DNA of 64,000 bases from an uncultured Gammaproteobacteria bacterium (GTDB taxonomy: Bacteria; Patescibacteriota; Patescibacteriia; XYB2-FULL-38-15), in NCBI GenBank assembly GCA_965231095.1, contig OZ246416.1:50938-114937 (forward strand), in the 5' to 3' direction. The notes beneath the pieces are model-generated. The model did no database searches. It saw only the letters and a program-made list of their open reading frames with translations, and was not told where the DNA came from. The position numbers were made by a program, and so were the translations under genes. Position 1 is the stretch's first letter, and every line of letters starts with the position of its first letter. This document shows, in pieces, positions 7,940 through 60,599 of the stretch.

Positions 7940-7981
7940 ATTTTTAGTTATTAGTTAATAGTTATCAGTTAGCAGTTTTTA

Positions 7982-8878: not shown

Positions 8879-8941
8879 AAACAGGTTTGAGACTTGAGAA
8901 TTGAGAAATTTTAATCTCAATTCTCATTTTCCAAATCCGTT

Positions 8942-9505: not shown

Positions 9506-9647
9506 AAATTTAGACAGACGACTGACGACAAACGACTGACGACGCGGAGGTTGTTAGTTGTAAGTCGTTAGTTGTAAGTTGTAAGAATTCTTTTATTATT
9601 ATATAATGAAAAAATACAAAAGTCAAAGTTATCTTTGAAGTTGTTTT

Positions 9648-23178: not shown

Positions 23179-23302
23179 AGGGCTTCGCCCTGTGTTATCT
23201 GCACTCGCTCGGAAATGAATAAATTCATTTCTCTTACTCGCTTGATAATAAAAAATTTATATTTATAGAATCTTTGTAAATGGGGGAGACAAAGTTTTAT
23301 TT

Positions 23303-27173: not shown

Positions 27174-28460
27174 ATGAAAAAATATTTTATTATTTCCTAC
27201 GGCTGCCAAATGAATAAGAGCGATTCCGAGCGAGTGGCGGCGGCGCTGGAAAAAATCGGTTATAAGCCCGCTCGGAGCGAAGCGCAGGCTGATTTGGTTG
27301 TGCTCGTAGCGTGCTCCGTGCGGCAGGCGGCGGTGGATCGGCTTTTTGGGAAAGCAAGAGAGTTGGCCAAACTTAAAACTCATAACTTAAAACTTAAAAC
27401 AGTTTTAACCGGTTGCGTTTTGCCGCAGGACAAGAAAAAATTTATAGGCAAATTTGATTTTATTTTAAATTTAGAAGATATCTCAAAATTAAAAAATCCA
27501 AAATCCAAGATACAAGATACTAAATACAAAATACTAAACACGGGCTATTTGCACCTTCAGCCGCGGCGTACGGAAAAATTTCGCGCTTACGTGCCGATTA
27601 TGACCGGCTGTAATAATTTTTGTTCATACTGCGCCGTGCCTTATGTCCGGGGAAGGGAAGCAAGCCGCCCAGCCGCCGAAGTCCTGGCCGAAATAAAAAA
27701 TTTAGCAAAAAATGGCTGCCTTGAGGTGACACTTCTTGGACAAAATGTAAATGCTTATCGGCCGAGTGACGTGAAAATTTTTTCCAAAAAAAATCCATAT
27801 AAGCATCCTTTTGCCGCGCTCTTATGGGAAGCAAATCAAACCCCGGGTATAGAGCGAATATTTTTTACCGCGCCGCATCCGCGCGATATGACGGACGATG
27901 TAATTCGCGCTCTGACTTTACCCAAAATGGTAAATTATTTGCATCTGCCGGTGCAGGCGGGCGATGATGAAGTTTTAAAACGGATGAATCGCCGTTATAC
28001 CGTGGCAGATTATTTAAAATTGGTGGCGAAAATAAAAAAGAAAAAACCGGGCATCGCGCTCGGCACGGATATTATTGTTGGATTTCCCGGCGAAACCAAA
28101 AAGGCGTTTCAAAATACTGTGGAACTTTATAAAAAAGCGGATTTTGATATCGCGTATCTGGCAATATACTCGCCACGGCAGGGGACAGCGGCAGCGAAAT
28201 TAGTTGATGATGTTCCGCGGCAAGAGAAAAAACGTCGGCGGGATATTTTGCAAAAGTTAATGGAGAAAATAGTTTTAGAAAAAAATCAAAAGTATGTCGG
28301 AAAGACAGTGTCAGTTTTGGTTGATAAATTTAAAAACGGCCAGTGTGTCGGTAATTCGCGGGAAATGAAAGTAGTACGATTTTCCGGAAAGAAAAATATG
28401 GTTGGGAAAATTTTTGAGGTTAAAGTTAAAAAAGCGTTGGAGTGGATTTTGGAAGGATAA
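27174..28460 (+). CDS. miaB: radical-SAM methylthiotransferase, MiaB/RimO family, with in-frame low-complexity insert
   Basis: MTTase N-domain YGCQMNKSDSE, radical SAM CNNFCSYC, C-terminal TRAM domain; tandem DNA repeats at 27375-27410 and 27490-27545 encode KLKTHNLKLKT and KSKIQDTKYKILNTG. Confidence 0.8.
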   Translation: MKKYFIISYGCQMNKSDSERVAAALEKIGYKPARSEAQADLVVLVACSVRQAAVDRLFGKARELAKLKTHNLKLKTVLTGCVLPQDKKKFIGKFDFILNLEDISKLKNPKSKIQDTKYKILNTGYLHLQPRRTEKFRAYVPIMTGCNNFCSYCAVPYVRGREASRPAAEVLAEIKNLAKNGCLEVTLLGQNVNAYRPSDVKIFSKKNPYKHPFAALLWEANQTPGIERIFFTAPHPRDMTDDVIRALTLPKMVNYLHLPVQAGDDEVLKRMNRRYTVADYLKLVAKIKKKKPGIALGTDIIVGFPGETKKAFQNTVELYKKADFDIAYLAIYSPRQGTAAAKLVDDVPRQEKKRRRDILQKLMEKIVLEKNQKYVGKTVSVLVDKFKNGQCVGNSREMKVVRFSGKKNMVGKIFEVKVKKALEWILEG

Positions 28461-40047: not shown

Positions 40048-40094
40048 AAATAAAATTCAAAAGTCAAAATTCAAAAGTCAAAAGTTTTGTAAAA

Positions 40095-45537: not shown

Positions 45538-45621
45538 TTTAAAAGTCAAAGGTCAAAAATCAAAGGTCAAAAATTAAAGTCGAAATCCGAAATTTTGTCT
45601 TTTGAATTTTGACTTTTTGTT

Positions 45622-47536: not shown

Positions 47537-48628
47537 ATGGAGAAATTATTCAAAAAAATAATTGCTTTTGTAAAGAAACAACCGTCGATCTGGCTGGTTG
47601 TTTCTTTGTTATTAATTTCAGTTTTTGTTGTGGCCGGCGGAGGTTATCTACTTTTATCCCGAACTTCTTTTTTGGATTTTTTTTCACGGGCGGGAGCCGA
47701 GCAGAGAAATGAAGAAAACGAAACAGCGCCAGCCGCGGAATTTCGCCGGTTGATTGACGGGGTGAAAGTTGACGACGAAGCAAAAATAAATCCCGCGCTT
47801 TTTGCCGTGCAGATTGAAAATATGGTCGACGCTCGTCCGCTCTCGGGGGTGTCTCGCGCAAATTTAGTTTATGAAACTTTGGCCGAGGCCGGGATCACAA
47901 GATTTCTCGCGATTTATGCCGCAGACAGCGATGTTTCGGAAATCGGACCGGTTCGAAGCGCCCGGCCGTATTTTCTGGATTGGGTTTCTGAATTTGGCGC
48001 GCTCTACGCCCATTCCGGCGGCAGTCCGGAAGCGCTGCGCTTGATTCCCCAGTACGATATTTTGGATTTGAACGAATTTGCTTACGGAAGATTTTTTTGG
48101 CGAGCAAAGTCAAGATATATGCCGCATAATCTTTACACTTCAACTGAATTGCTGAACGAAGCTTTTGCGGCAAAAGAAGGCGAGATAAAAAATTTTCGCG
48201 GCTGGCAGTTTAAAGATGAAGCCTTATTGGAGGCGCGCCCGGAAGAAGAGAAAAGAATTAAAATTTATTTTTCCACAAAAACCTACGAAGCTGGATGGCA
48301 GTATAGTCGCGAGACAAATGATTATTTGAGATATCAAGCTGGATTGATCCAGCAAGACAGAGATGGCGGCGAAGTTCGGGCAAAAAATATTGTAGTGCAG
48401 TTTACGCGCGTGGTGGTTTTGGATGAAATTGGGAGAAAAGATATTGATACAGTTGGAGGGGGCGAGGCAATTGTTTTTCAGGATGGAGTCCGGATTGAAG
48501 GAACTTGGAAAAAAGAGGCGCGCGGGGAGCGGACAAGTTTTTATGATACAGTCGGAGTAGAAATAAAATTCAACCCAGGAGTGACTTGGGTTGAAGTGGT
48601 GCCAAACGGAACGGAAATTGAATTTTAA
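47537..48628 (+). CDS. DUF3048-like secreted/membrane-anchored protein
   Basis: N-terminal TM then conserved GVSRANLVYETLAEAGITRFLAIYAADS...SARPYFLDW; track start 47390 is out-of-frame readthrough of rplY tail. Confidence 0.55.
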   Translation: MEKLFKKIIAFVKKQPSIWLVVSLLLISVFVVAGGGYLLLSRTSFLDFFSRAGAEQRNEENETAPAAEFRRLIDGVKVDDEAKINPALFAVQIENMVDARPLSGVSRANLVYETLAEAGITRFLAIYAADSDVSEIGPVRSARPYFLDWVSEFGALYAHSGGSPEALRLIPQYDILDLNEFAYGRFFWRAKSRYMPHNLYTSTELLNEAFAAKEGEIKNFRGWQFKDEALLEARPEEEKRIKIYFSTKTYEAGWQYSRETNDYLRYQAGLIQQDRDGGEVRAKNIVVQFTRVVVLDEIGRKDIDTVGGGEAIVFQDGVRIEGTWKKEARGERTSFYDTVGVEIKFNPGVTWVEVVPNGTEIEF

Positions 48629-48738
48629 TTTTATATTTTAAAAATAACCAAACGATCTCGGCCGGCGAGGTCTTTTTTTACCCTCACACCAATGCATTGG
48701 TGTGAGGGTTTATTTCTCTTTGGGCTGGGGGTATAATT

Positions 48739-49623
48739 TTAAATTTCAAAAATAGCAATTCTATTTCTTCCCGAAAGATCTTGTTTAATCTTAATTTTTG
48801 CGGAAGGGAAGCGGCGTTTGATTAATTTTGTGATGGATTTTTTTTGAGAAGGGTCGATTTCAAAGATTGAAGTAATGGGTGACGAGTAATGGGTAACGAG
48901 GAATTCTATTTGTTGGAGGAGCTCGCGGTAATAATTTAAGCCATCGGTACCGCCGTCAAGCGCCGTTCGTGGTTCGTATTTTTTTATTTCCGGCTGGGTT
49001 TTTTGCCATTGGCGGGTTGTGAGATACGGAAGGTTGGCGACAATTAATAAATTTTCAATTTTCAATTTACAATTTTCAATTTTGCGAATTACAGGTTTTA
49101 GTAAGTCGCCATGGATTAGGGTGACGGCCGCCTCGTGGTGTTTAATATTTTTTCTTGCCACCTCCATGGCGCCGGAGGAAATTTCCGTGGCGAAGATTTT
49201 GGCATTGGGCAGACGGCGGGCAAGTGCGATGGCGATGGCCCCGCTTCCGGTTCCGACATCGACGATTGATGTATCTTGTATCTTGTATTTTGTATTTTGT
49301 ATTTTTCTCAAAACTTCCTCCACTAAAATTTCCGTTTCGGGGCGGGGGATTAAAACATTTTTGTTTACAAAAAAATCCAGGCCAAAAAATTCTTTGAGGC
49401 CAGTGATGTAGGCGATTGGTTCATGTTTGGCGCGGCGGGCGATAAGTTTTTTAAATTTTAACAATTGTGCCGCCGTCAATTTTTTTTCAGAATGCGCGTA
49501 TAAAAATTCTCGCGGTTTTTTTATGACAAAAGATAAAAGAATCTCGGCGTCCAAAGACGGGGAGAGAGTTTTTGATTTTTTTAAAATTTTTATCGCCCAG
49601 ACGATGGATTGTTTGATGGTCAT
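48739..49623 (-). CDS. prmC: release factor glutamine N5-methyltransferase PrmC/HemK with several in-frame tandem-repeat inserts
   Basis: SAM motif VDVGTGSGAIAIALA, NLPY substrate motif; in-frame repeats at 48860-48895, 49040-49090, 49265-49300. Confidence 0.85.
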   Translation of the reverse strand: MTIKQSIVWAIKILKKSKTLSPSLDAEILLSFVIKKPREFLYAHSEKKLTAAQLLKFKKLIARRAKHEPIAYITGLKEFFGLDFFVNKNVLIPRPETEILVEEVLRKIQNTKYKIQDTSIVDVGTGSGAIAIALARRLPNAKIFATEISSGAMEVARKNIKHHEAAVTLIHGDLLKPVIRKIENCKLKIENLLIVANLPYLTTRQWQKTQPEIKKYEPRTALDGGTDGLNYYRELLQQIEFLVTHYSSPITSIFEIDPSQKKSITKLIKRRFPSAKIKIKQDLSGRNRIAIFEI

Positions 49624-49650
49624 ATAAATATTTAAATATTATAACATAAA

Positions 49651-49692
49651 AAATCACCCGAGCGTTGCGTGCGATTGGGCGCGCAAAACTCG
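49651..49692 (-). terminator. intrinsic terminator of island D 197-aa gene
   Basis: Minus strand CACCCGAGttttgcgcgcccaatcgcacgcaacgCTCGGGTGattttttat. Confidence 0.6.
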
Positions 49693-49706
49693 GGTGTGAC
49701 GGTCGG

Positions 49707-50297
49707 TTACGGGGAAGTGATGTCCTTCGTCCCGTCGTAGGGATCGCCGGAGTCGGCGGAATCGTCGGCGGGCGGCGCAGCGGGCGAGACGACCTCGACT
49801 TCCTCCTCGATGTCCTCGGCCACCACGACCGTGGTTTCCGGCGCGTCTTCGAGGATCTCGACCATCTTCATCGCCTGGCGCACACAGGCCGACAGCTCGG
49901 CGGTGGAGAAGGCGTAGGAGAGTTGTTCGAAGGTAACCCGGCGTCCTGGTTCCGTGTCCTTCGACATCCAGTGTTCGATCAGCTTGGCGAGATCATCGTC
50001 GGAGACGCGTTTCAGGATCTCCTCGATCGCGGATTTTGCGCCGTTCTCGATACCGCCGAGCATCGCCTGGCGCATGATGGGCACGGTGTCTTTCTTGTCA
50101 CCGGGCCAGATCCCGAGTAGATCGCCAACGATCTTCTCGAAGGTGTGCACTTGGGCAATGTGAGCCAGGCCGCTGGCCCGGCTCAAATTGATGTGGTGCA
50201 AGATGATCCAGATGTTCAGGACGCCGAGATCCACGAAGTGCTGGAGCATCGCCGCTAGCGTCAACTTCTTGTCTCTTTCCTTCTTGGATTCCGCCAT
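49707..50297 (-). CDS. GC-rich island D gene 2: hypothetical ~197-aa protein (helical, acidic C-terminal tail)
   Basis: MAESKKERDKKLTLAAMLQHFVDLGVLNIWIILHH...; ~62% GC; minus-strand promoter cTTGACAa-N17-TAAGGT at 50342-50370; 5' UTR palindrome CTCCGATTAATCGGAG. Confidence 0.55.
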   Translation of the reverse strand: MAESKKERDKKLTLAAMLQHFVDLGVLNIWIILHHINLSRASGLAHIAQVHTFEKIVGDLLGIWPGDKKDTVPIMRQAMLGGIENGAKSAIEEILKRVSDDDLAKLIEHWMSKDTEPGRRVTFEQLSYAFSTAELSACVRQAMKMVEILEDAPETTVVVAEDIEEEVEVVSPAAPPADDSADSGDPYDGTKDITSP

Positions 50298-50382
50298 TGT
50301 CTTCCACTCGCTCCGATTAATCGGAGTCCTTTCTATCCGCACCTTAGTTTAAAAAATAAAATTTGTCAAGATAAAAAAAGAG

Positions 50383-50445
50383 CCCGTGGATTGCTTGGAG
50401 TTGGGGCACGGGACGTGTCTCCAAAGCAATCCACGGGCTGGGTGA
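50383..50445 (-). terminator. long-stem intrinsic terminator after island D zinc-ribbon gene
   Basis: agcccgtggattgcttggag...ctccaaagcaatccacgggct ~20-bp stem followed on minus strand by ctcttttttt. Confidence 0.6.
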
Positions 50446-50608
50446 TGCCCAGCGGGTGCCGTGAGGCTGGCCGGCTGGGCTCAGTCGCGTGACCCGCCCG
50501 GGGGGTAGGAGGGCACCGGGGAGCCGACGCGAGCTTGGGGAACGGAGAGTTCTCGAGCGAACTCGCAAACTCTCACGTTATTGGTGGGTAAGTTACAGGC
50601 GGGTCTTG

Positions 50609-50881
50609 TCAGGGTCGGGGGCAGTTCCGGACGACATGCATTCGCTTGCGCCTGGCGCGGGCGACGCCGTCCGTGTACTTCTTGCCCTTGCGTTCGGCGA
50701 AAGTGTGCATCGAGCAGTAGTGCCCGGTATTCCCGCTACGGAGAATCGTTCCACAGTCGGGTTCCTGGCATCGCCGCGGCTTGCCATCGTCGGTGCTCCG
50801 ACCGCTGTCGTGCACGTCGCCGAGCGAATTGGCGCCGACCGTGCCGGTACCCTGATCCATTCCGAGCGCGCTCCAGTCCAT
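50609..50881 (-). CDS. GC-rich island D gene 1: 90-aa Cys/His-cluster (zinc-ribbon-like) protein, possibly nucleic-acid binding
   Basis: ...RRCQEPDCGTILRSGNTGHYCSMHTF...; SD GGAGGAGGAAGG before ATG; 5' UTR hairpin ccttgcgt..acgcaagg. Confidence 0.55.
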   Translation of the reverse strand: MDWSALGMDQGTGTVGANSLGDVHDSGRSTDDGKPRRCQEPDCGTILRSGNTGHYCSMHTFAERKGKKYTDGVARARRKRMHVVRNCPRP

Positions 50882-51004
50882 CCTTCCTCCTCCTCAACCT
50901 TCCCTATTATCAACTCGTCCTGTCCACCAGGCCGAGGCTTAGGGCCACCTTCCTTGCGTTTTGACGCGTGCCAATAACGCAAGGCCACCCTGTTTGTTGA
51001 TTTT

Positions 51005-51065
51005 AGAATATAATAAAAAGCTTAATTTGTCAACCCCTTGACAAATTTTAAGATTGTGGTAGAGT
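51005..51065. promoter_or_regulatory. divergent sigma70-type promoter pair with palindromic overlapping -35 boxes (TTGTCAAccccTTGACAA)
   Basis: Plus: TTGACA(51038-43)-N16-TAGAGT(51060-65). Minus: TTGACA-N16-TATTCT (plus agaata 51005-10). Perfect inverted repeat ttgtcaa/ttgacaa around cccc. Confidence 0.55.
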
Positions 51066-51071
51066 GTTCTG

Positions 51072-51388
51072 TAGGGTAATGGGGAGTCCTGTTTGGTTGA
51101 TGCCGGCAGCGCACCGGCGTCGTGGGCAGTCATTTTTTGCTTCACTCTGAATCCGGAACCCTTGGCTGGTGAACAGCGCGTTGTAGCGCGGCTGGCCTTG
51201 TGGCGAAGGACCCACGGAGTGGCCCGACAGGAACCCGGTTCGCGAGCTGCCCGTTAAGCAGACGTGGGCTGAAATCTCCCCAGCGCATCTGATCCTCCAA
51301 GTCCGCTTCGGCGGGCACGGAGGTCACCATTCTTTGCACACCGCTGCATTTCGCGTTGTGCCCGTCGGTCGAACACCCTGTTCGACCG
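51072..51388 (+). ncRNA. candidate ~320-nt GC-rich structured non-coding RNA of unknown class, driven by the island D plus-strand promoter and ending in a strong intrinsic terminator
   Basis: No plus-strand ORF with SD; CCGCuucgGCGG UUCG tetraloop hairpin, several GC stems; terminator GTCGGTCGAACaccctGTTCGACCGACtctttttt at 51354-51388. Confidence 0.45.
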
Positions 51389-51394
51389 ACTCTT

Positions 51395-51418
51395 TTTTAT
51401 ATAAAAAACCGGCCTTGC
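51395..51418 (-). terminator. intrinsic terminator of prfA
   Basis: Minus strand CCGGCCgcaaGGCCGGtttttt, preceded by cccgactaaagtcggg hairpin. Confidence 0.6.
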
Positions 51419-51489
51419 GGCCGGAGGGAACGGAGTCCCGACTTTAGTCGGGTTATACATTGCCCACCCTGAAGAGTGGACTCCAAAAT

Positions 51490-52530
51490 TTAGTTTATAT
51501 CTTTTTTCAATACCTCAATAATTCCGTCCAATTCGCCGTCCATTACGTTATTAATATTGTGCCAACTTTCTTTTACCCGATGATCGGAAACGCGGTCTTG
51601 GGGAAAATTGTAAGTTCTGATTTTTTCCGCGCGCATGGCCGAACCGATTTGCGAACGCCGCGACGCAACTTCTGCCGCCTGGCGTTTTTCTTGTTCCATG
51701 GCAAAAAGACGGGCGCGCAAAACCTGCATGGCTTTTTCCCGGTTTTGCTGCTGCGATCGTTCGTCTTGGCAGGCGACAACAAGCCCGGTTGGAAGATGCG
51801 TAATTCTTACGGCCGAATATGTTGTTTGCACGCTTTGTCCGCCGTGGCCGCCGGATAAAAATGTATCAATGCGCAAATCCTTTGGTTCAATTTTTATATC
51901 AATTTCTTCGGCTTCGGGAAGTACGGCGACCGAGGCGGTTGAGGTATGAACCCGTCCGCTTTTTTCCGTGTCCGGAACGCGCTGAACGCGGTGCACGCCG
52001 CTTTCAAATTTTAAATTTCCCCAGGCGCCTTTTCCAATGACGGAAAAAATAATTTCTTTAAAACCGCCGAGGTCAGTGCGGCTTGAGGATATTAATCTTG
52101 TCTGCCAACCTTTCCATTCGGCAAACATGGAATACATTCTGAATAATTGCGCGGCAAAAAGCGCGGCCTCGTCTCCGCCCGCGCCGGCCCGGATTTCCAC
52201 AATAATATTTCTTTTGTCCAGCGGATCTTTTGGCGTCAGCTCTTCTTTGATTTCTATTTCAAGCGCTGCCTTATCTTGCCGAATTTTTTCCAACTCATCT
52301 TTCGCGATGGCGACCAGTTCCGGAACATTTTGTTTTGCGACTGTTTCTGTGTCGGCTTCTTCTTTTTCCCATTTATGAAATTTTTTTATTTTTTCCATCA
52401 CGTCTTTTATCTCGCTGTATTCACGGGAAACGGTTTTTAATTTTTCCGGATTAGAAACCACCTCGGGGCGGGCAAGTTCCGCTTCGAGTTCGGCAAAACG
52501 TTTTTCAGCTTTTTGGATTTCCGGGAGCAT
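51490..52530 (-). CDS. prfA: peptide chain release factor 1
   Basis: GGQ motif [12 protein letters not shown], PxT-type recognition motif RVPDTE, RF-1 size 346 aa; normally directly upstream of prmC. Confidence 0.85.
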
Positions 52531-52605
52531 AATTTAAATATTAGTTTATTCTAACATAAAAACATGATAACAAAAACGTCACCATGTTTTTTATGATTGG
52601 AATAG

Positions 52606-52863
52606 CTACTTTGTTTTTTTCGCTCTCGGTTTCTTTTCTTTTTTTGTTGCCGCCATAGACGCCTTCTTTTCCATTTTTTCTTTGAATTTTTCCACGCGTC
52701 TGGCCGAATCAACTAATTTCTGTTTGCCGGTGTAGAACGGATGGCAGGCAGAACACAACTCAACCTTTATTTCTTTTAAGGTTGAGCCGACGGTAAAAGC
52801 GTTGCCGCAGGCGCAAGTCACTTTTGCTTTTGGATAATATTCTGGGTGAATTTCTTTTTTCAT
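52606..52863 (-). CDS. rpmE: 50S ribosomal protein L31
   Basis: [23 protein letters not shown]...[10 protein letters not shown]. Confidence 0.9.
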
Positions 52864-52925
52864 AAAATAGATTATTTATTTACATTAATCTTAATTTAAC
52901 ATAAGGCCGTGAGTTTGGCAAGGGG

Positions 52926-52956
52926 TTGACAAAATTACGGGGTGGAGTAATAAGAT
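52926..52956 (+). promoter_or_regulatory. sigma70-type promoter of island E (TTGACA ... TAAGAT)
   Basis: ggggTTGACAaaattacggggtggagtaaTAAGATgag. Confidence 0.5.
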
Positions 52957-52987
52957 GAGTAGGGGTTGCCACAAAAGGAGGTGTTCT

Positions 52988-53224
52988 ATGGCAAGAAGAA
53001 GTTGGAGTTTCGAGCATCGGGGTACGGAAGGCGTCATCAAGACGCCTGACGGGGAGCACGTCGTCCATTCCAAAGAGGAGGCCAAGCGGCACTTGCAAGA
53101 GGGTGCACACCTGAAATATATCAGCTCTTCGATTGCCGGCCCTACCCTCGCGGAGCGGGACGAGGCCAGGGAATGGAGAGAGGCGGTGAGGCAGGTCAAT
53201 GAGTCCAGCCTTCCCGACAAGTAG
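52988..53224 (+). CDS. GC-rich island E: hypothetical 78-aa protein
   Basis: MARRSWSFEHRGTEGVIKTPDGEHVVHSKEEAKRHLQEG...; SD aaaGGAGGtgttctATG; terminator 53233-53285 with nested tccga-gaaa-tcgga hairpin. Confidence 0.55.
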   Translation: MARRSWSFEHRGTEGVIKTPDGEHVVHSKEEAKRHLQEGAHLKYISSSIAGPTLAERDEAREWREAVRQVNESSLPDK

Positions 53225-53232
53225 TCGGACAT

Positions 53233-53285
53233 CGGTTGTGTTGGTCGGCAGGAAATCCGAGAAATCGGAGAGTACTGCCGGCCGT
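53233..53285 (+). terminator. intrinsic terminator of island E with nested GAAA-tetraloop hairpin
   Basis: GTCGGCAGgaaaTCCGAgaaaTCGGAgagtaCTGCCGGCcgttttttt. Confidence 0.6.
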
Positions 53286-53621
53286 TTTTTTATTTTCAAA
53301 AATCTCTCCCCCTCCTTTCGAAGGAGGGGTTAGGGGTGGTTTTTAAAAACTCCCACCCCACCTAACCTCCCCTCGGGCAGGGGAGGAATATTGAGCATTT
53401 GCCCTTGCCCCCACACCAATTTCAGCGAGGCCATTTTTATCCGAGTTTAAAATAAAAAAATTGGTGTGGGGGCTTGCATTATTTTTGCTTTTGTGTAAAA
53501 ATAGATGAAAGTCATTTATTAATAGTAATCCCACATGTTTTGCCTTTAAAACTTGTTCCTGATCCCCGCCACTGCGGGGACCCGCAAGTTTTGGCAAAAC
53601 AGAGGTTAAAAAGGAAAATTT

Positions 53622-54407
53622 ATGCCAGAGATCCCAACAATGTTGGAAATGCTCCAGGCCGGTGTTCATTTTGGACACAAGGCCTCAAAGTGGCATCCGA
53701 AAATGAAGCCGTTTATTTTTGGAGAACGGAGCGAGGTCCACATCATCAACTTAGAAGAAACGGCGAAAAAATTAAAAGAAGCGTTAGAATTTGTCAGAAA
53801 AACAACAGCCGCGGGCGGAGTTGTTCTTTTTGTCGGTTCAAAAGAGCAAGCCAAAGAAATTGTGAAGCGCCACGCAAAAGACGCCGGCATGCCTTATGTT
53901 ACGACTCGTTGGCTCGGCGGAACTTTTACAAATTTTAAAACTATCAAGAGTGTGACTGATCGGTTTACTGATTTAAAAAACAAAACAGCGACCGGCGGAC
54001 TCGCGAAGTACACCAAAAAAGAGCAGTTGAATTTCCAAAAAGAAATTGTGAAATTGGAAGAATTGGTTGGCGGCATTGAAACTTTAAAGAAATTGCCGGA
54101 AGCGATTTTTGTCGTTGACGTCAGGGCGGAAAAAACCGCGGTGGCCGAAGCGAGAAATAGAAAAGTTCCGGTGGTCGCTCTTTGCGATACAAATATTAAT
54201 CCGGAAGATGTTGATTATCCGGTTCCTTCAAACGATGACGCGGTAAAAGCGATTGAAATGATGGTGGGACTTTTCGCCGCGGTCGCGAAAGAGGGAAAAG
54301 CGGAGTTTGAATCAAAAAGAGGCGCGGCTCCGGCTGCGGAAAAACCGGCGGCTCCAACTCCAACTCCGGCTCCGGTTACGGAGGTGAAAGAGGAAGAGAA
54401 AAAATAA
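53622..54407 (+). CDS. rpsB: 30S ribosomal protein S2
   Basis: MLEMLQAGVHFGHKASKWHPKM...; Pro/Ala-rich C-terminal tail. Confidence 0.9.
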   Translation: MPEIPTMLEMLQAGVHFGHKASKWHPKMKPFIFGERSEVHIINLEETAKKLKEALEFVRKTTAAGGVVLFVGSKEQAKEIVKRHAKDAGMPYVTTRWLGGTFTNFKTIKSVTDRFTDLKNKTATGGLAKYTKKEQLNFQKEIVKLEELVGGIETLKKLPEAIFVVDVRAEKTAVAEARNRKVPVVALCDTNINPEDVDYPVPSNDDAVKAIEMMVGLFAAVAKEGKAEFESKRGAAPAAEKPAAPTPTPAPVTEVKEEEKK

Positions 54408-54536
54408 TTCAATTGAAGTAATTAGTAATTGGTAATTAGTGCAGAACCACCCCCAACCCCCTCCTTCTAAAGGAGGGGAAAATGGTGGTTGAAATTACTC
54501 GTTGCCCGTTACGCGTTACTCGTTACTTATAAACAT

Positions 54537-55127
54537 ATGGGGGTAGATTCAAAATTAGTCATGCAACTTCGAGAACAAACCGGCGCGGGAATTGTTGAAT
54601 GTAAAAATGCCTTAGATGAGGCGGGCGGAGATATTCTAAAAGCGATTGAAGTTTTAAGAAAAAAAGGTGAAATAAAAGCGGCGAAAAAATCGGCGGAACG
54701 GACAGCCAAGGAAGGTTTAATCCATGCTTACGTCCACGCCAATGGAAAAGTCGGAGCAATGGTTGAAATAAGTTGTGAAACAGATTTTGTGGCGCGCACC
54801 GAAGAATTCCAAGCGTTGGTTCATGATATTGCCATGCAAGTCGCGGCGACGAATCCATTGTATGTAAAACCGGAAGACGTGCCGGAAGAAGTGGTTGCCA
54901 AAGAAAAAGAAATGTATCTTGAAGAAGTGCAGGGACAGGAAAAACCGCCAGCGGTCATAGAAAAAATTTTAGAGGGAAAATTGGAAAAATATTTTGAAGA
55001 CATTTGTCTTACCAAACAGCCGTTCGTGAAAGACGAAGATACTACGATTGAAGAATTGGTAAATCAAAAAATCGCCAAGATCGGAGAGAAGATTGAAATA
55101 AAAAGATTTGTAAGATTCCAAATATAA
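54537..55127 (+). CDS. tsf: elongation factor Ts (start at internal Met; track ORF begins earlier in a GC-rich repeat)
   Basis: LVMQLREQTGAGIVECKNAL UBA-like N-terminus typical of EF-Ts. Confidence 0.85.
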   Translation: MGVDSKLVMQLREQTGAGIVECKNALDEAGGDILKAIEVLRKKGEIKAAKKSAERTAKEGLIHAYVHANGKVGAMVEISCETDFVARTEEFQALVHDIAMQVAATNPLYVKPEDVPEEVVAKEKEMYLEEVQGQEKPPAVIEKILEGKLEKYFEDICLTKQPFVKDEDTTIEELVNQKIAKIGEKIEIKRFVRFQI

Positions 55128-56000: not shown

Positions 56001-57020
<1,020 letters not shown>

Positions 57021-57042
57021 GATTTTTGATTTAAGATTTTAG

Positions 57043-57078
57043 ATTAAAATATAGAGCCAGCCCCGCCATGGCGGGGCT
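57043..57078 (+). terminator. intrinsic terminator after gap
   Basis: GCCAGCCCCGCCatgGCGGGGCTGGCttttattt. Confidence 0.7.
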
Positions 57079-59622: not shown

Positions 59623-59659
59623 ACCTGACAATTAACAGTTGACAATTAACAATTAACAG

Positions 59660-60565
59660 TTGACTATGAAAAATAAAGGATATTTTTTGGTTTTAGGAAC
59701 GGCGATAATTTCCGGCGTTTCTATTTTTGTAAATCAGTTTGGCGTTAAAGTTATCAATTCGGATATTTTTACCGGTTTGAAAAATATAGTGGTGGCCGTA
59801 ATTTTGTTGTGTCTTATTTTTTGGTTTAAAGAATGGAAGTTATTGGCAAAATTAAAAATCAAGGAATGGCTGACTTTGGTTTTAATCGGTTTGGTCGGCG
59901 GCAGCATTCCGTTTTTACTTTTCTTCAAGGGCCTGGCCGCGACAAGCGGAGCGAGCACGTCTTTTATTCATAAAACTTTATTTATTTATGTAATAATTTT
60001 GGCGGCGCTGTTTTTGAAAGAAAAAATAAGTAAAAATTTAGCGATCGGCGCGGCCTTGCTTTTGCTCGGCAATGTGGCGCTCTTGAAAATTTTTAATGGA
60101 TTTCAATTCGGTTATGGCGAGTTATTGGTTTTGTTTGCTACGCTGTTTTGGGCGGCGGAACAAATTATTTCTAAGCGGGCGCTTCAAGATATTTCTCCGA
60201 AAATTGTCGCTTGGGGCAGAATGTTTTTCGGATTTTTATTTATTTTTATTTTTTGGGCGGCGACGGGTCAGTTGAAATTGCTGGGCGGGGTGGGAGCGGC
60301 GGAATTAAGTTGGGTTTGGATTACAGCCGTTTTTCTTTTAGGCTATGTTTTAACTTGGTATTCTGGCTTGAAATATATAAAAGTTTCAACCGCGGCGTGT
60401 ATTTTATCTTTAGGCGCGCCAATTACCAGCTTGCTTGAAATGGCGCAAAAAGGAATTTTTGATTGGCAGATTTTTCTCGGGAGTTTGTTGATGTTTGCGG
60501 GAGTAATTTTAGCGGTAGATTTATTTTCACGGATTAAAATGGCGGCAACAAACGCGATCCGTTAA
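59660..60565 (+). CDS. EamA/DMT superfamily transporter, flanked by ~35-bp inverted repeats
   Basis: 10 TM helices in two EamA-like halves; flanking caattaacagttgacaattaac (59629-59663) and its reverse complement (60561-60597). Confidence 0.65.
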   Translation: MTMKNKGYFLVLGTAIISGVSIFVNQFGVKVINSDIFTGLKNIVVAVILLCLIFWFKEWKLLAKLKIKEWLTLVLIGLVGGSIPFLLFFKGLAATSGASTSFIHKTLFIYVIILAALFLKEKISKNLAIGAALLLLGNVALLKIFNGFQFGYGELLVLFATLFWAAEQIISKRALQDISPKIVAWGRMFFGFLFIFIFWAATGQLKLLGGVGAAELSWVWITAVFLLGYVLTWYSGLKYIKVSTAACILSLGAPITSLLEMAQKGIFDWQIFLGSLLMFAGVILAVDLFSRIKMAATNAIR

Positions 60566-60599
60566 CTGTCAACTGTTAATTGTTAACTGTTTATTTACC

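Follow-up and report, generated by a model that had tools for sequence, protein, structure and literature searches.

Four intergenic hairpins in a 64-kb bacterial sequence probably belong to two unrelated families of miniature palindromic elements, one of them apparently related to a GIY-YIG nuclease cassette

Results

The window (the whole 64-kb stretch of DNA analysed) contains four GC-rich hairpins that form two families, A and B, of two copies each, all inside 6 kb (Table 1). A1 follows the terminator of a DUF3048 gene, B1 and A2 precede the rpsB promoter and B2 lies in the rpsB-tsf spacer. All four are real and far beyond chance, and their sequences are exactly those given in a first-pass annotation, although the coordinates had to be corrected by 2-10 nt: A1 is ACCCTCACACCAATG/CATTGGTGTGAGGGT, a perfect 15-bp palindrome at 48680-48709 (annotated at 48690-48717); A2 has 16-nt arms, GCCCCCACACCAATTT and AAATTGGTGTGGGGGC, at 53407-53422 and 53458-53473 35 nt apart (annotated at 53411-53475); and the hairpins of B1 and B2, which have the same arms around loops of TCG and CTA, had been placed at 53306-53327 and 54447-54468, respectively. 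The motif ACACCAAT occurs four times in 64 kb against 1.25 expected and is confined to four arms of these hairpins, and CCCCTCCTT, likewise confined to them, occurs four times against 0.51 expected, a number reached in 0 of 100 shuffles. Perfect GC-rich hairpins with a stem of at least 8 bp number only 24 in the whole window. Single-strand folds, all far more stable than those of shuffles, gave -14.6 kcal/mol (z -7.9) for A1, -19.9 kcal/mol (z -5.3) for A2, -25.3 kcal/mol (z -4.1) for positions 53300-53395 and -14.4 kcal/mol (z -4.3) for B2. The string of consecutive hairpins described for 53300-53480 resolves into one composite palindrome of ~80 nt (53308-53386) plus A2. The arms are shared between copies, as had been noted, with a true extent of 13 nt in family A (12/13 identical) and 34 nt in family B, where B2 matches B1 plus its tail at 31/34 positions in inverted orientation. 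A suggested tie to GC-rich islands found no support, because the conserved island module is present in relatives L001 and L002/L003, which have neither A nor B elements.

Table 1. Features of the hairpin-bearing spacers (window positions; X and X', mirror tracts)
Feature	Position	Strand	Sequence or basis
Conserved intrinsic terminator of DUF3048 gene	48654..48679	+	GATCTCGGCCGGCGAGGTC plus T7; kept in L001-L009 with or without A1
A1 left target duplication, TTTA	48677..48680	.	Filled site tcttttTTTA(element)TTTAtttctc
A1, 28-bp family-A element	48681..48708	.	CCCTCACACCAAT-GC-ATTGGTGTGAGGG
A1 right target duplication, TTTA	48709..48712	.	Filled versus empty sites
B1, family B long form	53308..53386	.	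One imperfect palindrome; same architecture in other loci
B1 hairpin 1	53308-53329	.	CCCCCTCCTT-tcg-AAGGAGGGG
B1 linker	53330-53332		TTA
B1 mirror tract X	53333-53341		GGGGTGGTT; followed by AT-rich centre
B1 mirror tract X'	53352-53362		CCCACCCCACC
B1 second linker	53363-53365		TAA
B1 hairpin 2	53366-53386	.	CCTCCCCT-cgggc-AGGGGAGG
A2 left target duplication, CTTG	53404..53407	.	Filled site tttgccCTTG(element)CTTGCATtattttt
A2, 65-bp family-A element	53408..53472	.	Repeats CCCCCACACCAATTT / AAATTGGTGTGGGGG; AT-rich 35-nt interior
A2 right target duplication, CTTG	53473..53476	.	Overlaps -35 box of conserved rpsB promoter
Host heptamer-repeat hairpin, left arm, rpsB-tsf spacer	54417..54440	+	(AGTAATT)n; TRF
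B2, family B short form	54445..54490	-	Minus strand carries the G-rich motif
B2 mirror tract X' (+ strand)	54445-54454		AACCACCCCC; followed by AA
B2 hairpin (+ strand)	54457-54478		CCCCCTCCTT-cta-AAGGAGGGG; followed by AAAAT
B2 end (+ strand)	54484-54490		GGTGGTT
Host heptamer-repeat hairpin, right arm	54495..54527	+	(TTACTCG)n; sequence comparison, TRF

Comparison with orthologous spacers in relatives delimits both family-A copies. A1 consists of two terminal inverted repeats abutted without cargo, and five relatives (L001, L002/3, L004, L008 and L009) lack it and have the empty site tcttttTTTAtttc; an ortholog at L006:5157-5186 carries a T-A to C-G change that is compensated in both arms. 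The adjoining terminator is host context outside the element, and its T-run supplied the A1 target. For A2 the empty site, CCCTTGCRY, is present in L001, L004, L005 and L009. The -35 box overlapped by the right A2 duplication (TTGCAT, 53474-53479) belongs to an rpsB promoter and leader (53474-53621) kept at 82-93% in nine relative loci. Further family-A copies in L004 and L005 occupy positions that are not orthologous, and the one at L005:2247-2318 has the same arms as A2 around an unrelated loop and a CAAG/CAAG duplication. A 4-bp target duplication was found for A1, A2, the L005 copy and the L006 copy.

Beyond the window, the pattern CACACCAATN{0,30}ATTGGTGTGRGGG matched at least 120 metagenome stretches, and the matches listed, comprising 131 instances, were examined with short flanks (0.77 Mb in total). 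The family-A ends are perfect inverted repeats of 13-16 bp (CCCYCACACCAAT) whose consensus is conserved in 128 copies among the matches listed; the left CCCC, which was no part of the search pattern, is present in 123-126 of these 128. In the same matches the loops, of 2-35 nt, are unrelated to each other, the centre of the palindrome varies (GC, GT, AC, AT and others), contigs range from 34 to 60% GC and 86/113 copies are intergenic; in L146 and L133 insertions are nested. Perfect 4-bp direct flanks accompany 38 of the 83 listed copies outside a long class (permutation mean 8.5, maximum 17), and inverted flanks only 7 of the same 83. The long class itself (48/131 listed matches), in which the core is embedded in a larger loose palindrome, is at odds with a simple terminal-repeat model. 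With terminal inverted repeats, a target-site duplication of fixed length (4 bp) and empty orthologous sites in close relatives, family A appears, on this comparative evidence, to behave as a miniature transposable element.

Larger family-A members of ~300 bp (L098/L203) carry a single gene, an 85-aa GIY-YIG ORF (Pfam PF01541, 63 bits), and among the 131 listed instances and their flanks the larger repeat-bounded units hold either the GIY-YIG gene (L098/L203, L176) or no ORF (L146, L133). The cargo is a UPF0213-type nuclease of 84-85 aa whose closest solved structures are UPF0213 proteins (PDB 1ywl, 1zg2), with no obvious DNA-binding module in the 85-aa protein, and the repeats lie 0-12 nt from its start and stop codons. 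There are 729 GIY-YIG homologues; the best 120 of the 729 are 71-95% identical, those with a name coming from Planctomycetes, Omnitrophica, Cloacimonetes, Margulisbacteria and CPR. Family-A repeats bracket 7/8 independent gene copies from several phyla, and the gene sits between conserved genes, for example at pstA|pstB, and after rpsJ. Gene-bearing cassettes are flanked by TNNA-like tetranucleotides, the duplication being imperfect in 3/4 and perfect solely in L210 (TAAT|CCCCCACACCAACTCC..gene..GGAGTTGGTGTGGGGG|TAAT). No close relatives of the gene were found in IMG/VR phage contigs or in plasmids, and no gene of this family lies within the 64-kb window. A partner element with family-A ends thus exists, its product being a GIY-YIG nuclease, a class not established as a transposase; GIY-YIG nucleases are hydrolases, and we know of no strand-transfer chemistry for them.

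The family-B motif consists of a hairpin with one polypyrimidine and one polypurine arm and, 3 nt beyond it, a G-rich tract that is a mirror image of the purine arm; the motif recurs across taxa, including 13 IMG/VR contigs. The architecture of B1 is also seen at L085:3822-3903, in L235, L237 and L234, and in the reverse complement of L004:7113-7213. A mirror tract with at least 88% match, usually after a 3-nt linker, was present in 15/23 pyrimidine/purine hairpins compared with 6/23 in a direct-repeat control, and covariation between the purine arm and the spacing of the tract's non-G bases is seen across the 13 IMG/VR contigs. B2 is missing from L005, L002/3 and L008 even though the flanks, including the left heptamer-repeat arm, are conserved there, and relatives have tttgatacgattat where it stands. 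Direct repeats are absent from the flanks of 53308-53386, 54445-54490 and the copies in L109, L136 and L137, and neither a partner gene nor a clean empty site was found for family B.

Family B shares with H-DNA, purine-motif triplexes and G-rich hairpins (telomere-like GGGGTTAGGGG) a homopurine/homopyrimidine duplex, a mirror-repeat G/A or G/T tract and a 3-nt turn. In textbook triplex geometry such a third strand forms G.GC and A.AT or T.AT triads. The family-B geometry, we infer, could fit an intramolecular purine-motif triplex or a G-hairpin. Unlike in H-DNA, the duplex is the hairpin itself and lies within a small, dispersed, insertion-polymorphic element.

Discussion

We consider it likely that the hairpins are selfish insertions of miniature palindromic elements and belong to two families that are unrelated and widely dispersed, family A being the gene-less form of a GIY-YIG cassette and family B a mirror-tract hairpin. 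The host genome is Falkowbacteria-like (Patescibacteria), and such selfish palindromes would have built up in those of its spacers that tolerate insertion. A family-A copy would be a pair of terminal inverted repeats enclosing 2 to ~40 nt, and each insertion would have duplicated a target tetranucleotide, TTTA in the terminator T-run for A1 and CTTG in the rpsB promoter -35 box for A2. Both copies would be non-autonomous (MITE-like) versions of the ~300-bp cassette, whose nuclease may recognise the palindromic ends and mobilise both forms in trans. B2 may have been inserted at the apex of an older heptamer-repeat hairpin or have replaced sequence there.

Family A shares with known MITEs (Correia/NEMIS, MITEAba12, QMITE) its terminal inverted repeats, short duplication, lack of coding capacity and intergenic preference, as well as insertions that are polymorphic among relatives, nesting and a larger partner with the same ends. 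It differs from them in its size, down to 28 bp or two abutted 13-bp repeats, in its span of several phyla and in that the sole partner found encodes an 85-aa GIY-YIG rather than a DDE protein; family B differs in having no target duplication. Conceivably, family A could be an ordinary MITE moved by an undetected DDE transposase of the kind that leaves 4-bp duplications (for example IS5-, IS1380- or IS701-like), with the GIY-YIG gene as a passenger or secondary invader. Terminal inverted repeats with a 4-bp duplication are typical of DDE elements among the IS families, to our knowledge no GIY-YIG enzyme is a transposase, and the imperfect duplications at gene-bearing copies point the same way. 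We regard this as unlikely, however, given that a transposase is absent among the window ORFs scanned, that cargo other than GIY-YIG was not seen in the matches listed, where larger units carry that gene or none, and that nearly all independent copies of the gene have family-A repeats.

A quite unlikely alternative is that a GIY-YIG homing endonuclease recognises the 28-bp palindrome and that its gene lies inside its own target, the repeats being half-sites and the hairpins empty or decayed targets spread by other means. GIY-YIG is a classical homing-endonuclease fold (I-TevI, Seg proteins), the gene sits exactly between two half-palindromes and the proteins share high identity across phyla. 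Homing by break repair does not duplicate its target, whereas hairpin-only copies have 4-bp duplications; the empty sites contain no palindrome that could have been a pre-existing recognition site, the palindrome differs at its centre from copy to copy and arms of 13-16 bp would probably be too short for recombinational repair. The duplications and the palindrome-free empty sites therefore argue that the palindrome itself inserts. Like the homing genes of the T4 Seg and I-TevI family, the cassette gene has a GIY-YIG catalytic domain and sits between conserved genes, and it resembles the small UPF0213/YhbQ-like proteins; unlike homing genes, it is bounded by inverted repeats and TNNA-like flanks, has no DNA-binding extension and has derivatives without the gene that insert independently.

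Selection by the host for intrinsic terminators, mRNA stabilisers or ribosomal-protein leaders, with the similarity reflecting shared function, is very unlikely. The stems are very stable, and A1 together with the adjoining TTATTTCTCT is scored as a terminator, on the + strand only; A2 is trailed by T-rich sequence (judged by eye, as the terminator scan allows loops of 3-8). The family-B arms pair AAGGAGG with an anti-SD-like CCTCCTT, and B2 lies in the rpsB-tsf operon ahead of a 16-codon uORF that stops 4 nt short of the tsf ATG. Against this, the terminator or stabiliser role proposed in the first-pass annotation becomes unlikely because the elements are missing from orthologous spacers of most close relatives, including relatives with S2 82-96% identical. 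A1 adjoins, on its downstream side, a complete terminator that is conserved at the orthologous gene end where A1 is not; A2 is upstream of a promoter, and the conserved rpsB leader starts only past it; B1 and B2 have opposite orientations relative to transcription, and B2, which has no U-run, occupies the apex of a pre-existing hairpin. Moreover, identical family-A stems occur in unrelated phyla and in every gene orientation (51 tandem, 10 convergent and 8 divergent among the matches listed). Under the preferred reading of selfish insertion, the terminator-like look would mostly, and probably does, result from insertion next to T-rich sequence.

REPs are lineage-specific, and the same sequence here is common to several phyla. 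That the hairpins are REP/REPIN elements kept by a RAYT (IS200-like Y1) transposase encoded at another place in the genome can be dismissed almost outright, because one published description (PMC3733652) places a GTAG or CGTC tetranucleotide at one palindrome end, a tag that the hairpins lack, the family-A ends being CCCC/GGGG with TTTA or CTTG flanks, the window ORFs scanned gave no Y1_Tnp match, and target duplications and a GIY-YIG partner are present instead. REP families run to tens or hundreds of copies per genome, and the 64-kb window has two plus two. The hairpins do resemble REPs in being short (20-40 nt), GC-rich, imperfect extragenic palindromes with a terminator-like look, at times doubled or nested as in REPINs. 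The description of them as REP-like thus fails in the technical sense but holds insofar as they are repeated extragenic palindromes of multi-copy families, with at least 120 metagenome contigs carrying the A stem and 13 IMG/VR contigs carrying the B motif.

Two families of repeated hairpins in the window

All four GC-rich palindromic sequences quoted by the first-pass annotation are present in the window, displaced by 2-10 nt from where it had placed them. They belong to two families, the miniature inverted-repeat palindromes of family A (copies A1 and A2, arm word CCCYCACACYAAY) and the polypyrimidine/polypurine hairpins with a G-rich mirror tract of family B (copies B1 and B2). Within the window, A- and B-type hairpins are confined to 48.6-54.5 kb. 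The word ACACCAAT occurs 4 times against 1.25 expected in 64 kb, and CCCCTCCTT 4 times against 0.51 expected, a count matched in 0/100 shuffles; neither occurs outside the arms of these four hairpins. Only 24 perfect GC-rich hairpins with a stem of at least 8 bp exist in the window, and one pair of hairpins shares 13 nt and the other 34 nt (31/34); chance cannot account for two such pairs. The folding stability of all the A and B hairpins lies far above that of shuffled controls. A whole-window energy-threshold hairpin scan was too noisy (280 matches, mostly coding) and the spacers were viewed one by one instead; these also hold ordinary terminators, period-7 tandem-repeat hairpins and large GC-rich structures. 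Rfam returned only tRNAs at the gathering threshold for the window and ten matched loci, and at E<=1 only spurious miRNA/snoRNA-like matches, with no known RNA family, for 48500-54700.

Positions and sequences of the repeat elements and of features near them (hp1, hp2, family B hairpins; X, X', mirror tract and its complement)
Feature	Position	Description
A1	48680-48709	15-bp perfect palindrome
A2	arms 53407-53422 and 53458-53473	16-nt perfect arms, 35 nt between
B1	53308-53329	CCCCCTCCTT-TCG-AAGGAGGGG
Imperfect palindrome with B1	53308-53386	a single palindrome rather than a string of hairpins; order hp1, TTA, X, AT-rich centre, X', TAA, hp2
First half	within 53308-53386	hp1 CCCCCTCCTT-tcg-AAGGAGGGG, TTA, X GGGGTGGTT
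Second half	within 53308-53386	X' CCCACCCCACC, TAA, hp2 CCTCCCCT-cgggc-AGGGGAGG
B2	54445-54490	short form X'-hairpin-X; inverted relative to B1; 31/34 identical to B1 and tail
B2 hairpin	54457-54478	CCCCCTCCTT-CTA-AAGGAGGGG
Family B pairs of purine arm, mirror tract		AAGGAGGGG, GGGGTGGTT; AGGGAGGGG, GGGGTGGGT; AGGAGGGG, GGGGTGGT; GGGAGGGG, GGGGAGGG; AGGGAGAGAGG, GGAGAGAGGGA; AAAGGAAGGG, GGGATGGATT
GIY-YIG gene copy, L210	between pstA and pstB	TAAT, CCCCCACACCAACTCC..GGAGTTGGTGTGGGGG, TAAT
GIY-YIG gene copy, L230		repeats CCCTCACACCAATTG..CAATTGGTGTGAGGG
GIY-YIG gene copy, L209 (CPR)	after rpsJ	TCCCCACACTAATT..AATTAGTGTGGGGA, compensated C-to-T change
GC-rich (~59%) island	49650-51470	between prmC and prfA; own TTGACA promoters and terminators
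Period-7/14 repeats (examples)	7944-7977, 8887-8907, 9513-9585, 27369-27538, 40052-40085, 45541-45617, 48871-48904
Period-7/14 repeats (more examples)	49050-49083, 49270-49305, 54417-54440, 54495-54527, 57015-57045, 59628-59658, 60561-60595

Family A copies are insertions with 4-bp target duplications

By its S2 homologues the window belongs to Patescibacteria, near Candidatus Falkowbacteria, and eight close relatives have an S2 that is 82-96% identical (L001/L007, L002/L003, L004, L005, L006, L008, L009 and L010). Gene order was compared in L001, L002/L003 and L004, whose flanks were long enough; they share the order rodA, L25, DUF3048, prmC(-), a variable segment, prfA(-), rpmE(-), a second variable segment, rpsB, tsf, PSP1 and gap. 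The DUF3048 terminator (GATCTCGGCCGGCGAGGTC plus T7) is conserved in all relatives examined, and after it L001, L002/3, L004, L008 and L009 have a continuous, empty A1 site (...tcttttTTTAtttc...). The filled site of the window reads tcttttTTTA, the element CCCTCACACCAATGCATTGGTGTGAGGG and TTTAtttctc, a 28-bp insertion with TTTA duplicated. In the L006 ortholog of A1 both arms have changed, from CCCTC/GAGGG to CCCCC/GGGGG, and the palindrome is still perfect. As for the terminator role first proposed for such palindromes, A1 scores as a terminator, but it lies behind a complete conserved one and is missing in most relatives. The window and L006 also have an additional ~90 nt separating A1 from the conserved prmC 3' end (48713-48800, compared with L001:2650-2700); this sequence resembles a degenerate second copy of the terminator region of DUF3048, and PrmC reads through it to gain a 15-aa C-terminal extension (...AKIKIKQDLSGRNRIAIFEI, against ...AKIEI in L001).

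The filled A2 site consists of tttgccCTTG, arm CCCCCACACCAATTT, 35 nt, arm AAATTGGTGTGGGGG and flank CTTGCATtatttttgc. Since the relatives have at this point a single CCCTTGCRY, which serves as the -35 box in the conserved promoter of rpsB, A2 has split and duplicated CTTG, the right copy restoring TTGCAT. A copy in L005, across a small GC-rich ORF on the side opposite from A2, has the same arms as A2, an unrelated 37-nt loop and a CAAG/CAAG duplication, and in L004 a copy that has diverged lies downstream of prfA.

Family A is dispersed among metagenomes

The pattern CACACCAATN{0,30}ATTGGTGTGRGGG, run on JGI metagenome contigs in one scan whose gaps of 0-30 under-sample A2-type loops, matched at least 120 stretches, against ~10 per terabase expected by chance (our own estimate, with the collection size assumed). 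The first-pass reading of repeated extragenic palindromes is thereby borne out, with these stretches for family A and 13 IMG/VR contigs for family B; no match to the family A pattern was found in the IMG/VR viral contigs. Among the matches listed, the left CCCC, which lies outside the pattern, is present in 123-126/128 copies, an A stands before it in 98/128, and in 104/128 the right arm is followed by the complementary T; loops are of 2-4 nt (n=37), 5-18 nt (n=17), 19-30 nt (n=72) or more than 30 nt (n=2) and have no sequence relation between copies, and the contigs range from 34 to 60% GC. By crude ORF calls on the matches listed, 86/113 copies are intergenic, of which 51 have co-directional, 10 convergent and 8 divergent neighbouring genes. 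Once the long class of copies (see below) is excluded, a perfect 4-bp direct repeat abuts the CCCC/GGGG ends in 38/83 of the copies listed, compared with a mean of 8.5 and a maximum of 17 in 2000 permutations of the flanks, and inverted 4-bp flanks are found in only 7 of the 83. The repeats seen include TTTA, TAAA, TATA, CTTG, CAAG, CACG, TGAA, TCAA and CCTG. In each of two loci (L146 and L133), a ~150-bp copy contains a nested 28-bp one that has a duplication of its own. Because the element favours TWWA-type targets, family A will often gain a T-run by construction.

REP elements have a GTAG/CGTC tag and a RAYT. The elements here have no such tag, no RAYT was found among the window ORFs scanned, and there are target duplications (family A) and a sequence common to several phyla; the assignment to REP elements is therefore not upheld. 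Copy density, loop variability and the target duplications speak against an integron attC site, a DNA-uptake sequence or an operator, all of which were rejected. The A and B sequences were found in no paper in the literature.

The long class makes up 48/131 family A matches listed (L086-L200; for example L100, L101:569 and 3850, L183:1288 and 7713). Its core lies inside a ~130-nt loose palindrome (cgacataagttat..gcgaattNa, core, tNaattcg..ataacttatgtcg) with a conserved apical loop of ~27 nt (tg..tagcNNNNgcta..ca), and several copies per contig adjoin housekeeping genes such as recG, rsmD and coaD. Gapless outward extension of the long-class flanks located neither ends nor duplications.

The full-length form of family A encloses a GIY-YIG gene

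A family A member of ~300 bp occurs at the same locus in two strains (L098 and L203), where the repeats CCCTCACACCAATT enclose an 85-aa ORF. The encoded protein has a GIY-YIG domain (PF01541, 63 bits), and among solved structures the uncharacterised UPF0213 proteins 1ywl and 1zg2 come nearest to it. At E<1e-10, 729 members of its family were found; the best 120 of the 729 are 71-95% identical, 102/120 are of 83-95 aa, and those named among them include Planctomycetes, Omnitrophica, Phycisphaerae, Cloacimonetes, Margulisbacteria and CPR Gottesmanbacteria. Family A repeats bracket 7/8 independent gene copies fetched, with 0-12 nt separating them from the start (ATG) and stop codons, and in L176 a more distant GIY-YIG gene (phmmer E 6.5e-09) lies between outer long-class repeats. 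A1 and A2 are thus gene-less members of a repeat-bounded family whose full-length form has a GIY-YIG nuclease gene and no other. We found no GIY-YIG ORF in the window (hmmsearch E<0.1), only distant partial relatives among IMG/VR viral contigs, only Listeria and Enterococcus homologues (40-43% identity) on plasmids, and no description of repeat-bounded bacterial GIY-YIG cassettes in the literature.

The nuclease may mobilise A1/A2-type hairpins in trans, a reading that we put at slightly under an even chance. A less probable view, ranging from unlikely to at best doubtful, is that an unseen DDE transposase moves family A and the GIY-YIG gene is a passenger; no transposase or RAYT was found among the window ORFs scanned with Pfam, nor any kilobase-scale element with family A arms in the fetched loci beyond the ~300-bp unit. 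That a homing nuclease gene sits in a palindromic target is improbable, with its close bracketing by the repeats set against gene-less copies that have their own duplications.

Known prokaryotic transposase chemistries form a short list (DDE, DEDD, HUH, serine and tyrosine recombinases, and Cas1), and small GIY-YIG proteins of the UPF0213 type are widespread and uncharacterised. Should mobilisation be the work of the GIY-YIG protein, its nuclease superfamily would join that list and these proteins would gain a function. Insertions of 28-80 bp mimic terminators, at sites that include promoters (the rpsB -35 box) and operons (pstA/pstB, after rpsJ); being common to several phyla, they can cause errors in predicting terminators and ncRNAs and in inferring HGT in streamlined CPR genomes.

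More distant small GIY-YIG genes have other inverted or direct repeats at their flanks: L065:4800-5230 (GGGGACCCAGATATT / AATATCTGGGTCCCC), L148:3470-3800 (CCCGTAGT / ACTACGGG) and L168:9627-9990, where a tRNA 3' end is duplicated and a TAAA, CCCC...GGGG, TAAA hairpin is present. GIY-YIG cassettes bounded by repeats may thus extend beyond family A.

Family B has a mirror tract

The rpsB-tsf spacer of L005, L002/3 and L008 has a heptamer-repeat hairpin with the apex tttgatacgattat; as B2 takes the place of this apex in the window, it is an insertion or a replacement, and no target duplication was found around it. The long form of family B also occurs in L085, L235, L237, L234 and the reverse complement of L004, and the short form in L109, L136 and L137. 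The pattern CCCCTCCN7GGAGGGGTTAGGGG is present in the 13 IMG/VR contigs (34-72% GC), where ~0.05 would be expected by chance (our estimate, the collection size being assumed), and one of these viral-collection loci, L236, is nearly identical to B1. No GIY-YIG gene lies near B motifs.

After a 3-nt linker, the tract mirrors the purine arm, such that G stays G and A becomes A or T. A mirror match of at least 88% was found in 15/23 pyrimidine/purine hairpins, compared with 6/23 in a direct-repeat control, and palindromy does not explain this relation. The geometry would fit a putative intramolecular purine-motif triplex or G-G hairpin, making the mirror tract a natural, covarying candidate for a non-B nucleic-acid structure. 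S2 autoregulation or SD/anti-SD mimicry by B1 and B2 was dropped, since family B is absent from the rpsB and tsf spacers of relatives and B1 and B2 are oppositely oriented.

The joint reading, which we hold as tentative and on the whole doubtful, is that family A represents an unrecognised class of prokaryotic transposable element and family B a dispersed mirror-tract element that forms a triplex or G-hairpin. The sole gene of such a class would encode a stand-alone GIY-YIG nuclease of ~85 aa whose substrates are palindromic ends able to form a cruciform or hairpin. An element of this kind would duplicate 4 bp of its target, have spread over bacterial phyla including CPR and give rise to 28-bp 'two-repeat' derivatives that may be the smallest mobile DNA known.

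B1 with its tail (53308-53341) and B2 (54445-54478) lie 1.1 kb apart as inverted copies of 34 nt (31/34); they bracket A2, the rpsB promoter and rpsB, and are a potential inversion substrate. A 16-codon uORF (54482-54532; ATG GTG GTT GAA ... TAA) starts 3 nt after a strong SD (AAGGAGGGG) of B2 and ends 4 nt before the tsf ATG (54537); the insertion of B2 created it, and relatives lack a counterpart.

Other features of the neighbourhood

A link between the palindromes and GC-rich islands, as first suggested, is not supported; the module of the prmC-prfA island is kept in L001, L002/3 and L004 regardless of A or B elements. The small-ORF module in these relatives has a conserved GC-rich leader and the terminator AGCCCGTGGATTGYTT...AARCAATCCACGGGCT. 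The island ORFs 49707-50342- and 50609-50881- have no Pfam match, one being a zinc-ribbon-like 90-mer (CxxC...HxC); a plus-strand unit of ~360 nt from promoter to terminator (51038-51400), also present in L001, resembles a structured RNA, and Rfam returned nothing for the island. Between rpmE and rpsB lies a self-contained GC-rich cassette (52927-53283), kept in L005, with a TTGACA promoter, an AAGGAGG SD, a 78-aa ORF (MARRSWSFEHRGTEG...) that has no Pfam match and a terminator at 53243-53283.

The rpsB promoter (TTGCAT, 16 nt, TAAAAAT, extended -10) and leader (53474-53621) are 82-93% conserved in nine relative loci. A leader hairpin at 53565-53582 (TCCCCGC-cac-TGCGGGGA), set inside an outer AAAACTTG/CAAGTTTT helix, covaries with that of L005 (TCCGGCG-ctc-GCCGGA), and the leader is a candidate for S2 autoregulation.

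A further small element repeated in spacers (gttatctgcRctcgctcggaaatgaataaRttcatttctcYYactcgcttgataat) has a single copy in the window, at 23179-23260, and two tandem copies inside the L001 prmC-prfA island (L001:3470-3640). The whole window abounds in tandem repeats with a period of 7 (or 14), many as inverted pairs that give AT-rich spacer hairpins, and GTAATTN-type repeats are found in several spacers of relatives as well. Even the prmC coding sequence has period-7 repeats (AATTTTC x4.9 and TGTATTT x5.1), despite a period that is not divisible by 3.
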